From Moniliella sp. 'wahieum' (taxonomy: Eukaryota), in assembly GCA_003971905.1 (NCBI GenBank), contig RSEE01000159.1, positions 1 through 64,000 of the forward strand: DNA of 64,000 nucleotides. The letters are read 5' to 3'. The position numbers and the translations under genes are program-made. Shown here piece after piece: positions 665-62,348 of the stretch; the stretch's first letter is position 1; each line of letters opens with the position of its first letter. Below the pieces are notes generated by a model. That model ran no database searches. It saw only the letters and a list, made by a program, of their open reading frames with translations, and was not told the origin of the DNA.

Positions 665-1580
665 GGGGGGCTGTGGAGGGGGGGGGAAAGGTGTAGGAAG
701 GGGGGAGCAGGCAGGCCCGAGCGGTGTGGGACCGAGGCGGGATGCTCGATGCGCTGAGACGGGAGCTGGGGCTGCAGCGGTGCGAGCGAGGTGCGGGTGC
801 AGAGGGCTGCCCCCGTGCCTGCGGGCCCCACGCCGGCCCAGAGGCGCGGCGGCAGGGGGCGCATATGCGATCACTGTCAATCCCACTAAGTACTAATGCG
901 CCCGCCGGCCTGCGCGCTACTGCCTGTGCTCACGCCGAGCAACCGCAGGCAGGGGGGCAGTCCCCCGGCTGCCTGCCCAGATTCTACCGCACCCTGCGTC
1001 CCCAGCCGCCTTGGCGCCCTGTACATTTCAAACCAGACGCACTGCCCCGCCTGCCTTCCGCCGTCCTGCCTCCCCGATCCGCCCAGAGTAGGCCTAACCG
1101 GCCTAACCTTTAACCCCTCACTCTCTGTCGCCGGCCTGCCTCTCGCTCCGGGGTGCACCACCCCGTCACCCGCCCAGCCCACTGGCTCCCTGCGCCTCTG
1201 TCGTGAGGCTGACGGAGTGTCGCCCATGCCCGGTACTCCACCAACATGCTTATGCTCCTCTCCCGGGTTTAGGCTGAGGCCTGAGGATTGAGCCTCAACG
1301 TTCAACAGCGCTCCGACGTCAGGAGAGGACACACACAGCTGGACAGAGGGCGCGCTACAGTGTACTCAGCCCTCAGACGGCTTTGCGTTGATGCCAGGTC
1401 ATGCACATGCACACACAACATGCATCATGGTGGTCTCTGGCTCTGAAGAGTGACGATGGAAGATGCAAGAGTAGGTGGGACGTCGTGCGCTATATACGTG
1501 GATCCCATACCACTGCAGGCCAGCTCCATGCATCATGGAGATAGATCGATGCATAGATGCAAGGAGGCAAGGATGATCCA

Positions 1581-1690
1581 TGGTCAATGGCAATGGTCAA
1601 TGGTCAATGATCAATGGTCAATAGATGACATGTGACAATGGTCCCGGTCAATGGTCAATGTCAATAGATGTGAATGGTAAAAGGTCAATG
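1581..1690. repeat. Degenerate tandem heptamer array (TGGTCAA)n
   Basis: tggtcaa tggcaa tggtcaa tggtcaa tgatcaa tggtcaa ..., with further copies to 1690. Confidence 0.85.
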
Positions 1691-2121
1691 GCCCGTGATA
1701 TGCACGAGGATGAGAAAACAACACTGTACGGCACGCGTACGTCCCTAGGCAGCAGCACGATGCAAGCCAAGAAAGGTGTGGGGAGCAGCGGGGGGGGGGC
1801 AGGGGTAGGCAAAGGGGGTTCAAGCTTCACGTTAGATGGGGCATGAATGAGATCCGAGATCTGAGATCTGAGAGGCGGGTGGGGTAGCAGGTAAAAGTAC
1901 AAGATGCGGCACATATACCGGAGGTGGGAAGGCACAAAGACACAAAGGCACAAACACAAAAGTGGCAAAGGGAGAAAGGGGCAGGGGGGGGGGAAGAGGT
2001 GGGCGGGGGACAATCAATGGACAAGGTGTACAGGAGCAACCGAGCGGGCAAGCCGGGGGGAAGACAGAGACAAGAGACAAGAGGGGGAGAAAGAGACAGG
2101 TATGATCCGCGCGACTAGTGG

Positions 2122-3973
2122 TCAGGCGCAGGATGGGAGAGGGGCACAGCCGAGGCAGGAGCCGGTGCCGAAGGTGCGGCCCACGAAGGGCGTGGGTAAT
2201 GTGGGTGGGGCTGTGCAAGGTGCATTGACGGGGCGGGGGTTGGACCGACTGAACCGACTGTACTGGGTGGGTGGGATGACGACGGAAAATGGGTTCTTGG
2301 AAAAACTCAAACGAAGACCAGGAGGTTTGACCCGTCCGTCGAGCATATGACCATTGAGCGTTTGTCGTGCGTTCGAAGCGGCTGAGACCGAGTCAAACTC
2401 AACGAAACATACGGGGCCTCCTCCACTCCCGCCTCCTGAACTGGCAGTAGGAGAGGCAGATTCGAAAAGAGTATCCTCTTTCTCTCCTTCTCCCGACTTG
2501 GCCGAGGACATTACACGGAATGCCATCGCACGGTACCCAGGTTGCGAAGCAAATAACGCCCGTAGCGCCTCTTCTAATTTCTTCGCGTTGGCTTCCCCGC
2601 CTGCCGCTGCGGAATTGGGCAAGTTGCCTACAAACAATGTTGTCCCAGGGGGATTATGGTCCCCAATCCCCACAGGGCCGGTGGAACGTGGACGAAGGGC
2701 AGCTTGGGATTGGGAGACGGGAACCGGACCAGGACCGGTCAGGGGGACACTGGGGTTCACCCCCAGCCCTGCAAACCCGGAATGGGGCAGAGCAGGCGGG
2801 ATGAAGGGATCGGGACTGGAGGCACCGCGGTGACTGGGACCGGGGTTACGATGGGAGGGGAGAAGCACGTAACGTGCTTGGGCCAGGGGGCAAGCGACCG
2901 GGGGGGCCTGATACGGACCATCGCCCCCCGTCGATAAAGGGACAGGGGGGCAGGGGGCCACCCAGCATAGGCCAATCAGGAAGAGGGGGAACATCCCGCA
3001 TCCACTCTGGTCCATTCGGAGGCGCAGATGGTGCCCATTCCTCGCCCCATACTGGTGGTGGTGGTGGACCGCATCGTACGACGCCACCTACGCCTGGATC
3101 AAAGGCCAAATCTTCTTCTGTTTCGTCCCAGTCGGTCGACGAGCCTGGGGTGAAACGCGGTGCACTTTCCAGAGCCGCGCCGATGGACGGTGGCGCATCC
3201 GAGGGGACGATGATAATCCCGGGGAGAGACCTGCGCCACTGGAACCACCCAGGCCCATGCCAGGACTGAGAGGCAAAGGAGGGGGGACAGATACCGTTCC
3301 TCGTCTTCGTAGCGTGAAGCAGTGGGGGAAAAGGCACGTAGGCCTCGAGGTGGCAAAAGGGGTAGGAGGGGCGGGAGATGGGCGCCGCAGAAGGTGGGGG
3401 CCGAAGCGGCTTGGTGTGCAGGTTTTCTTGGCCATCTCCGTCTTGAGCACTGCGCCGCGGTCGGGATCAACTTTGCGTCCATGCAGGCTGTCGCGCGCAG
3501 AAAGGGCGTCGGCGCGAGTGCGAAAGCGGGCAAACCCAATGGTCTGCTTGAGCTTGGCTGGTTGATTGGACACCGCAGCGTGGGAAGGCGGGGGTGGGGG
3601 CTTGAGGGTAGCCGCCTCAAAGCCAGGGGCAAAGAGGAAGAGGTTGTGGAACTCGCGATCGGTCATGTCATCGGGGAATCCAACGATGAAGACGGTGGTG
3701 ATGTCTTCGGTGGGGTAAGACGGGAGGAGGTGAGGCGGCATGGCCTGTTCCGGCACGGCCACGCGTTCTGGGCTGGGCTCGGGAGGAGGTGGGGAGGAGA
3801 GGAGGCTGTCGCGCCAGGCCCAGCGCTCGGCGGTGGCGGGAGCGGAGCGGGGCGGGAGCGGGAGCGGAAGCCGGAGTGGGAGCCGGAGCGGGAGCTGGAT
3901 CGGGAGCGGAAGCGGGTGCGGGAGGAGCGGCCGAGATGCTGGCCGACGGAGCAGGACGCATCCTATCGGCCAT
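2122..3973 (-). CDS. Whi3/Whi4/Scw1-family RNA-binding protein with two RRMs
   Basis: RRM1: ITTVFIVGFPDDMTDREFHNLFLFAPGFEAATLK...IGFARFRTRADA...VLKTEMAKK. RRM2: NPPGTTLFVGNLP...PVCFVEFDS...LRLSFSKNPF. Split by frameshifts. Start is 3973 (MADRMRPAP, PA-repeat extension) or 3741. Confidence 0.85.
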
Positions 3974-60666: not shown

Positions 60667-61203
60667 GCTGTGGACGTGGGGGTTAGTATACGGTACACAC
60701 AGTATATCTGGAGGCACTGCAAAGGCGACGGGGACGCACGTTTTTGCAGGTAGTAGAGGTGAAAACAGGTTTGTGTGTGGGTTTGTTTATGGTGGTGGTG
60801 GCTGGGAACCAATTAGGCCTTCGGTGCGATCGAGCGGAGACGACCGCAAGAGTCCGAAGCTTTCTTTACTGGGTCATCGATCATCGACGGGCTACCATGG
60901 TACCCGGTATCGGTGAAGTGAACCAAGGCCCGACACGCACGGACCCACCAGGTATACAATGTGGCGCGGGACTGTCTCAGAAGGGCTGGAAATAGTAGCG
61001 CCCAATCAAGATCAACAATGTGCTTACCTCATCCCCATCCAATGTTCAACGCTCAGCGCTCAGGTGATCGAGCAGCAATCACCGATCAGTCACCTGACCC
61101 ACGTGACCACCCGGTTTTCTTAACATTTCTCGTCAGTCCCTCTGCCCATTGCACCGACCACGCGATTATTGAAATAGTCGTCTTAGGTCAGCCTGTTCGC
61201 GCC

Positions 61204-61818
61204 ATGGCAGGTGGGGTTGGGTGCGGGAAGCCAGGCGGGAGCGCAGGGAGCAGGCTGGACCACCACCTCTTCCCAAGCATGTCGACGGTCAAGGAGGTCG
61301 GCACGACCAGTGCACCGCTTAAGAGCGCATCTTTCTTCATCGGCTCCTTTTGCAAGAAGTACAACGATGACTTTATGCTGTGCAAGCACGAGAATGGCCG
61401 TGACCCCTCTCTGTGCCTGAAGGAGGGCCGCCGTGTAACCCGCTGCACACAAGACTTGTCCGTCGCCTTCCTCCTCTGCGTTTGTGCTGCGTACTGAGCC
61501 CCCTTCCCCCCACCCCACCCCTCTGTAGTATCCGCCAGCTGAACAAGGCATGCAAGGCCCAGTGGGAGACTCACTACGAGTGCCTCGAGAACGGCGACCA
61601 CTACTTCTGGAAGTGCCGCGCCGAGGAGAGGCCGTTCAACAAGTGCGTGTACGACAACTTTGTACGTCCCCATCCCCCGTGCGCCAAACGATTTCGACGG
61701 GTCCTGACCGCGTCATGTCCCTGAGCAGAAGATCAAGAAGGTGCTGCCTGACACTCCCGAGGGCGTGACGCCTGTGCACGAACTGGAGAACCCGATCTAC
61801 CGCCCGTTCTCGTCGTAA
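61204..61818 (+). CDS. NDUFA8: Complex I accessory subunit NDUFA8 (twin CX9C)
   Basis: VKEVGTTSAPLKSASFFIGSFCKKYNDDFMLCKHE...CLKEGRRVTRC; CKAQWETHYECLE...CRAEERPFNKCV. Two introns. Start uncertain (61204 or 61279). Confidence 0.93.
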
Positions 61819-62348
61819 GCATTGCCCCTATGCCCCTCTCAGATCTCATGGCCCTAAGCCGCCGATCCCGTAGGACGCGCACCGATTCCGGGATGCTCGG
61901 TACTCTGGATGAGGAGGATGATCGATGATCGGCGTAGGGACTGGTTTGGTCTGCTAGGGTAGGGCGCTTTGCAGATCGCCGACTCGTCATACCCCGAGCA
62001 GCCGGGTATGCTCCCTCCACGCGCCCAGTGTTTGCAGTCCGGGTGGATCGAATAGAACACTTTGCATTGTAAAGGAGCTTGGGTGGGACGCATCCTCTCT
62101 TATCATCGATCGATGATTGCGTGTCATTGGGATCTCACGAGTTGAGGAATAACCATCGGGTGGGGGGCGTGCACACTCGCTTCTCTAAATAGGGTAGCCA
62201 ACCCCAAACACAGATCTGCGTGTTTTGCCGCGGGGACTTGGGGTGCGTGGGTGGGCGGGAATCGAAGGCAAGCGAATCGGGCACAGCTCCCAACCAGGAG
62301 TAGGTGCTCAGGTGGGGGTTAGAAGGGCGGGCTCCTTTCCCGACACAG

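Follow-up and report, generated by a model that had tools for sequence, protein, structure and literature searches.

RAG and Transib nick DNA exactly at the boundary of the element, Transib duplicates 5 bp of its target, and Artemis opens hairpins two bases from their apex. To our knowledge, Transib is the only transposon family that forms flank hairpins at the exact boundary. The available parts of two papers describe transposons that form hairpins on the flank and leave palindromic P-nucleotide footprints in fungi (PMC5873905; PMC5499845). Flank hairpins are attributed there to Hermes, Transib, RAG1 and Muta1, with host enzymes such as Artemis as possible openers (PMC5499845), and Pso2 is named as an Artemis-related hairpin nuclease of yeast (PMC5873905). 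Here we analyse a 64-kb stretch of DNA from the smut-related fungus Moniliella sp. 'wahieum' (contig RSEE01000159.1, positions 1 to 64,000; 59% G+C; hereafter the window), in which dozens of short units, each a four-base palindrome between two copies of a TNA triplet, are probably the excision scars of a cut-and-paste transposon.

Two other groups of elements bear on the comparison. For hAT transposons, the part of PMC5873905 available to us describes palindromes centred on the complement of the base adjoining the element, and hence odd, as well as 28 different footprints of Ac/Ds at one site in Candida. Target duplications of 7 bp occur in two basidiomycete groups covered by the available text of PMC12730594, namely hAT7 (Pucciniales) and Kyakuja (Laccaria), and the available portion of PMC9942834 yielded nothing on 7-bp duplications. 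In the open-access literature, we came upon no account of a 7-bp scar centred on TNA and spread genome-wide.

Palindromic spacers are specific to repeated TNA triplets

Across the window, 47 of the 80 TGA-N4-TGA or TCA-N4-TCA decamers have a palindromic spacer, and so do 5 of the 8 TAA/TTA decamers, giving 52 of 88 for all TNA-N4-TNA pairs that share the central base N. The remaining 30 trinucleotide classes have 0–12% palindromic spacers, and all classes pooled give 149/1763. Markov simulations of order 1, 3 and 5 (40 each) produced means of only 1.8, 1.3 and 2.7 palindromic units, with a maximum of 8. TNA pairs separated by 2, 6 or 8 bases are palindromic in 6/25, 0/52 and 0/22 cases. Among the triplets, the palindrome excess is confined to TNA, and these other spacer lengths show none. 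The T and A of the triplet are both needed: when the first base of the left triplet is left free (X in X-N-A-P4-T-N-A, where P4 is the palindrome), 52 cases have T, and the 14 with any other base are about the chance level.

These counts extend an initial annotation of the window, which had reported about 45 exact units. Our 47 include every position it listed, a slight under-count on its part. It had named 13 palindromic cores; the number with TGA or TCA is 14 of 16, TTAA (8835) having been overlooked, while the absence of TATA and ATAT was correct. The TAA variants that it mentioned are present at 887, 8632/8639 and 53341/53348, and its view that symmetry is conserved rather than sequence is right. 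Beyond that account, the central base may be A (TAA), and it is the T and the A themselves that are obligatory.

Natural DNA gave the same answer as the simulations. In 80 Miro GTPase loci from other fungi, taken from metagenomes and totalling 970,739 bases, 37 of 776 TNA-N4-TNA pairs are palindromic (4.8%, or 2.4 per 64 kb). The nearest Miro loci obtained (L001–L004; 59–60% identity; contigs of up to 158 kb) have 0–2 palindromic TNA units each, and the signature is missing from these nearest available relatives. Since the Markov, triplet-class and natural-DNA controls all agree, the signature is real and specific and is no general property of fungal spacers; it is lineage-specific.

Each unit follows a simple grammar. 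If a site is written pq-TNA-rs, the palindrome is either rs·s'r' (right form), its first half being the two bases after the second TNA, or q'p'·pq (left form), its second half being the two bases before the first TNA. The palindrome derives from the unit's own flank in 46 of the 52 units: 15 match on both sides, 15 on the left alone, 16 on the right alone and 6 on neither, as against 4, 3, 6 and 23 among non-palindromic pairs. At the level of the 88 pairs there are 31 right and 30 left forms, so the mirror outcomes are equally frequent. The two TNAs of a palindromic unit agree in their central base in 52 of 55 cases, which means that the triplet is directly copied and not mirrored. Only five of the seven bases repeat in 31 of the 52 units, the other two being mirrored (five forward, two backward), and most single units are therefore no true tandem duplications.

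The units avoid coding DNA. Open reading frames (ORFs) backed by Pfam matches, 13.5 kb in all, overlap none of the 52 units (binomial probability of zero, 5e-6). By a rough codon-usage score, which recovers 94% of bases in the eight Pfam-backed ORF segments that are its own training set, the coding-like half of the window holds only 4 of the 52. The earlier claim of exclusively non-coding placement is thus approximately right, holding fully for Pfam-backed ORFs and less strictly for the coding-like half. The units also cluster: once merged into 31 loci, they lie a median of 194 bases from their neighbours, compared with 605 for randomly placed TNA sites within non-coding-like DNA (P=0.0025), and 16 gaps between loci are shorter than 500 bases, against a null mean of 8.0. 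Several spacers of comparable size lack any unit. A promoter-only placement was rejected, as units at 53266-53359 sit in a 3'-3' spacer between a convergent AP-mu gene (+) and aldehyde dehydrogenase gene (−).

Of 40 events, 37 have G or C at the centre, whereas A/T-centred sites make up 27% of the non-coding TNA sites available (P=0.0026). Core frequencies approximate the availability of dinucleotides beside TSA sites (S, G or C), with observed versus expected values of 6 versus 2.4 for CGCG, 5 versus 2.8 for ACGT and 0 versus 2.3 for ATAT. CGCG is the commonest core (10/47) and yields the MCB-like hexamer ACGCGT.

This hexamer, together with the position of the units in non-coding DNA and their clustering in some spacers, could be taken to mean that they are selected sites for a dimeric factor reading TGA half-sites 7 bp apart, as the initial annotation had suggested; but the 14 cores track flank availability with no defined core kept, each is derived from its own flank, units also occur in the 3'-3' spacer, and a protein cannot demand complementarity of arbitrary bases. 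We consider selection for such a factor extremely unlikely.

Units with one violated constraint number 44, against 24.4 expected, beside the 52 perfect ones. The excess amounts to about 20 decayed, one-substitution copies and suggests an average divergence of at most about 4% per site. With perfect units (about 52) outnumbering decayed ones (about 20), the process is recent or continuing. Judged by the core spectrum, the avoidance of coding DNA and the one-substitution derivatives, it looks mutational and unselected.

Length of the duplicated segment

Arrays that mix several forms bear on how much of the target is duplicated. The chain at 15873 reads GG-TCA-CCGG-TCA-CCGG-TCA-ACGG-TCA-ACGT-TCA-AC and resolves, from a site GG-TCA-AC, into left, left, H and right steps, where H denotes a spacer rs+pq, that is, a plain 7-bp duplication (here of GGTCAAC). 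At 59128, GT-TCA-ACGT-TCA-AGCT-TCA-AG is a left form followed by a right form around one ancestral site. Non-palindromic H spacers number five in the whole window. A minor class has one base more (+8): P4 stands at one end of the spacer in 12 of 27 TNA-N5-TNA, compared with 3/26, 16/143 and 10/117 for A.T, G.C and C.G triplets, and 9 of the 12 have as their extra base the one that comes next in the 7-mer, q or r (P=0.0017). The grammar of single units also governs mixed arrays, +8 variants and plain 7-bp duplications, and a target-site duplication is kept as direct repeats of 5, 6 or 7 bases at 7–8 base spacing. The H spacers, the +8 class and the mixed chains point to a duplicated segment of 7 bases rather than 5.

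This length bears directly on a variant explanation, in which a Transib-like element duplicates 5 bp (TNArs) and two P nucleotides are added from one flank only. Such scars would have the same net sequence as the main class, and exact-boundary flank hairpins with a 5-bp duplication are what is known of Transib. The variant nevertheless fails to predict plain 7-bp duplications beside left and right forms, as at 15873 (left, left, H, right), or the extra base of the +8 variants, which in 9 of 12 cases equals the one just outside the 5-mer. With one exception, in the degenerate 1580-1691 array, P nucleotides of the other flank (rs+N'A) are seen solely at places where a palindrome would contain the same bases, and the target would be asymmetric. 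We regard a 5-bp origin as improbable.

Period 7 also stands out among perfect tandem duplications, which number 63, 31, 6 and 6 at periods 6, 7, 8 and 9. Of the 31 with period 7, 17 are odd palindromes and 16 of these have a TNA core. One might ask whether palindromic heptamers simply expand by replication slippage because their single strands fold into hairpins. The over-representation of period 7 (31 versus 6 for period 8) and the folding of long arrays, which is better than that of shuffles (z -4.2 and -2.7), would suit such expansion, but the units themselves do not: single units do not fold (0 kcal/mol at 36812-36833), and the 31 of 52 that repeat five of seven bases only are no tandem duplications. 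Enrichment is seen only for A-P4-T with a TNA centre and not for G-P4-C, C-P4-G or T-P4-A; 16 of the 31 perfect period-7 duplications are TNA-centred odd palindromes, so the sequence of the unit matters; and the signature is missing from 971 kb of other fungi. Slippage is largely refuted as the origin, for which we hold it very unlikely. Because long arrays fold well as single strands, it probably helps once arrays are long, and it is a possible secondary route of array growth.

Folding of the arrays into mismatched stems, which the initial annotation had raised, is not supported as the origin, given the same single units and the same 31 of 52 that are no tandem duplications. Its broader idea of a generating process that involves hairpins fits better than a sequence-specific site, and the binding-factor alternative that it also offered sits poorly with cores that approximate the flank dinucleotides of TSA sites and with 46 of 52 palindromes coming from their own flank.

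A candidate excision chemistry and its possible source

We assign a probability of roughly 0.6 to the following reading: the units are repair scars left by excision of a cut-and-paste DNA transposon that has a 7-bp target duplication at nnTSAnn and forms RAG/Transib-like exact-boundary hairpins, opened two bases off the tip. From the anatomy and grammar of the units, their TNA specificity, their avoidance of coding DNA and their clustering, we infer the element, the hairpin chemistry and the joining steps. The element would insert at nnT(S>W)Ann (W, A or T), where a 7-bp staggered cut centred on N would give the duplication pq-TNA-rs. On excision, each flank would be sealed as a perfect hairpin precisely at the boundary between element and flank. 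A host nuclease would then open each hairpin two bases 3' of the apex, leaving duplex ends flush with TNA that carry self-complementary four-base 3' overhangs, the left one rs·s'r' and the right one q'p'·pq. One overhang would be ligated directly to the opposite flank at its recessed 5' end, and the second overhang would be removed. The product would always be +7, either TNA-rs s'r'-TNA-rs or pq-TNA-q'p' pq-TNA.

Under this joining scheme the two mirror products should be equally common, as indeed they are (31 and 30). Ligation of a single strand predicts no double-overhang product, which agrees with 0/22 for TNA-P4-P4-TNA. The +8 class may arise when one side is opened one base nearer the apex. 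Other by-products that might be expected are not in evidence: forms with +9 occur 3 and 6 times of 52 (chance 3.25), and period-6 forms are at the chance level. The new 7-mer s'r'-TNA-rs would form a perfect odd palindrome that can itself serve as a target, so the arrays would grow with further visits, and hops to nearby sites would give rise to clusters of different arrays.

Among described systems, V(D)J coding joints and Transib/RAG-type hairpins come closest, sharing even, gap-free palindromes of arbitrary sequence that are templated by the last two bases of the flank; a two-base P segment is the outcome of opening two bases from the apex. The even 2+2 palindromes are the pattern of an exact-boundary hairpin, to which the chemistry would correspond. 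The duplication differs: it is 7 bp at nnTNAnn, as the H spacers and +8 variants show, whereas that of Transib is 5 bp. Unlike V(D)J/RAG joints, those here are almost invariant in length, genome-wide and in a fungus.

Excision of Ac/Ds and other hAT elements, in plants, budding yeast and Candida, likewise leaves the duplication in place with palindromic alterations at the junction and is repaired by end joining of opened hairpins, as far as described in the available part of PMC5873905, but hAT footprints are heterogeneous and their palindromes odd, whereas the forms here are even. A 7-bp duplication in the same phylum is common ground with hAT7 and with Kyakuja (available text of PMC12730594), although Kyakuja is without terminal inverted repeats (TIRs). 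Within hAT, the duplication length agrees with hAT7 only, other hAT elements having 8 bp. We rejected a hAT-type chemistry: the five hAT junction forms occur 1–3 times each among the 88 pairs, against 31 and 30 for the even forms, and the period-6 odd (hAT-type) form is seen in 1/48. Scars of Sleeping Beauty (Tc1/mariner) contain transposon-end bases and the TA duplication; like the units here, they are one stereotyped scar of a few bases, near-palindromic and with an ambiguous central base, but the scars here hold flank-derived bases only. PIF/Harbinger prefers TNA targets (TAA/TTA) and thus has the same T-N-A core. It differs in its 3-bp duplication, as given in the available part of PMC12730594, against 5–7 bases here, and in that the centre here is mostly G/C.

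Several points weigh against excision of a transposon. No pair of TIRs with a 7-bp duplication above chance was found within the window. Exact 7-bp direct repeats around inverted ends (at least 11/14 matches) gave 7 matches, each of them either chance-like or an array matching itself; CAC...GTG ends, with 6/7 or more matches required in the duplication, gave 3 chance-like matches in the window; and the motif CTCACTG, with 8+6 occurrences there, has no paired ends. Pfam found no transposase family among the 185 window ORFs of at least 130 aa, and no RAG-like gene was seen in the window. Published Ac/Ds footprints are much more varied than the scars here. About 31 loci in 64 kb implies very many excisions by a family now rare or dead. 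Some units do not fit the grammar, namely those at 26029 and 34074, the 38763 array and the CGCT spacer in the 8164 array. Finally, we know of no superfamily that combines a 7-bp duplication with exact-boundary flank hairpins.

The lack of an element within the window, along with the extreme uniformity and density of the scars and an excess of perfect over decayed units that makes the process recent or continuing, would suit the same chemistry run by the host, in which a host or domesticated nuclease cuts nnTSAnn with a 7-base stagger, or a RAG-like enzyme forms hairpins, and the ends are then joined. No such host system is known, however, and a staggered cut with fill-in yields only plain duplications of the H type, a minority here. 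We think a host origin unlikely.

Other repeats were also noted. A long inverted repeat at 16068-18268, considered as a fold-back element, was rejected because it consists of two diverged paralogous genes in convergent orientation. The paralogues (16080-18255) have about 80% identity along some 800 bases; each begins at CCACCACCATGACCG, and intron signals (GTACGT...CTGAC...TAG) are common to both. Their upstream spacers carry different arrays, 15871-15998 in one case and the +8 array 18357-18373 in the other. A small element of the long terminal repeat (LTR) type lies at 34912-36301, with two direct repeats of about 241 bases (TGTTGG...GTCAACA) that are 1149 bases apart. Its LTR copies (34912/36061) are nearly identical, differing only by indels of 1–2 bases and one substitution; there is no 7-base difference between them, nor any 7-base scar inside the element. 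A perfect 33-base inverted repeat with a 61-base loop (13792-13824 and 13886-13918) lies in non-coding-like DNA, with no target duplication at its edges. Homopolymer runs of C or G, 13–16 bases long, occur in spacers at 16109-16124, 59077-59091, 49460-49472 and 53589-53601. GC-rich (GCGGGA)n and (GGC)n repeats at 3836-4037 fall inside long overlapping ORFs and are probably a low-complexity coding repeat.

Catalogue of loci and their meaning

The loci range from single units to long arrays (window positions, with strand where one applies). Single left forms are TAA-GTAC-TAA (885..898, +), TCA-CGCG-TCA (8402..8415, −), TGA-CTAG-TGA (24306..24319, +), TCA-CCGG-TCA (38593..38606, −), TGA-AGCT-TGA in the 3'-3' intergenic spacer (53266..53279, +) and TCA-GATC-TCA (61837..61850, −). 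Single right forms are TGA-CATG-TGA (1624..1637, +), TGA-GGCC-TGA-GG (4319..4332, +), TCA-GTAC-TCA-GT (36816..36829, −) and TGA-TGCA-TGA-TG (59000..59013, +). Right forms also make up (TGACGCG) x2.7 (37098..37118, +) and (TAAGGCC) x2.7 (53339..53359, +), and one stands beside a decayed unit in TGA-CGCG-TGA-CGTT-TGA (46425..46445, +). The left-then-right chain described above occupies 59126..59146 (−).

Longer or composite loci begin with TGA-GGCC-TGA-GGAT-TGA followed by TCA-ACGT-TCA (1273..1306) and TCA-AGCT-TCA plus a (TGAGATC) array (1818..1873), both without a single strand. On the + strand, the array at 8162..8210 has spacers CGCG (three times), CGCT and AGCT (twice), and 8630..8704 combines a (TAATCGA) array with a TGA-TTGA-TGA-TCGA-TGA array. 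The TCA chain of CCGG, CCGG, ACGG and ACGT spacers shares its locus (15871..15998, no single strand) with (TGACGCG) x2.9, TCA-CATG-TCA and TCA-TGCA-TCA. Shorter arrays are (AGTGACT) x3 with spacer CTAG (30040..30060, +), two copies of TGA-AATT-TGA (37200..37236, +), (CGCGTCA) x2.4 (38995..39008, −), (TCATCGA) x2 (60872..60885, −), TCA-ACGC-TCA-GCGC-TCA (61044..61064, −) and (GATGATC) x2.1 (61917..61930, +).

Plain 7-bp duplications of the H type are represented by the degenerate, TCA-centred (GGTCAAT)n array with spacer rs+pq (1580..1691, −) and by (GCATTCA) x2.3 (25312..25327, −). The +8 variants comprise TGA-ACGT+T-TGA, which shares 8799..8846 (no single strand) with a TGA-ATGT/ACGT array and TCA-TTAA-TCA; TGA-T+CATG-TGA, whose extra base is flank base r (15842..15852, +); TGA-CGCG+C-TGA (38112..38122, +); TCA-GCGC+A-TCA (55798..55808, −); TGA-GGCC+C-TGA (58975..58985, +); and the arrays (CGCGTCAC) x2.1 (18357..18373, −), (TTGAACGT) x2.4 (34682..34700, +) and (CTGATGCA) x3.6 (38280..38308, +).

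The fit to the flanks is incomplete at a few loci. Each flank matches one of two bases in TCA-ACGT-TCA (38454..38467, −) and TCA-AATT-TCA (58723..58736, −). Neither flank matches in TCA-GTAC-TCA (34072..34085, −), which is possibly a chance occurrence, or in TCA-CCGG-TCA, which shares 26027..26088 (−) with a left-form TCA-TGCA-TCA; and the flanks of (TGATCGA) x2.4 (38761..38781, +) lie outside the grammar.

The surrounding genes are of a housekeeping kind. Those with Pfam support include Sec1, Miro, DLIC, RNase T2, Ufd2, DNAJC9 and an RRM protein, and further AP-mu, an aldehyde dehydrogenase, a nucleoside permease, an NAD-binding protein and a kinase. For the Miro protein encoded in the window, the nearest named relatives belong to Ustilaginomycotina, with Tilletiaria anomala first at 65%, followed by Sporisorium, Violaceomyces and Thecaphora.

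If the units are excision scars, one transposon family left about one scar locus per 2 kb of the window, and its scars would be the main source of the window's 7-bp tandem repeats, a clear natural case of microsatellite birth through transposon excision. They would form a genome-wide record of hairpin opening and joining in a basidiomycete, reactions that have elsewhere been investigated for the most part in V(D)J recombination and with imported Ac/Ds. No described superfamily has both a 7-bp duplication and even P nucleotides, and the element behind the scars could therefore represent a new lineage akin to RAG/Transib in its chemistry. The scars seed palindromic promoter motifs and are thus a possible source of regulatory variation.

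A bolder version, which we advance only tentatively and think doubtful, is that an undescribed lineage of fungal DDE transposons, or a host enzyme derived from one, with a 7-bp stagger at nnTSAnn and RAG-like exact-boundary hairpins, is still active and continuously writes +7 scars, thereby creating palindromic heptamer microsatellites and cis-elements such as ACGCGT and TGACGT de novo. Were this so, the fungus would harbour a natural 'DNA-writing' mutational process, acting on non-coding DNA genome-wide, whose signature can be read.

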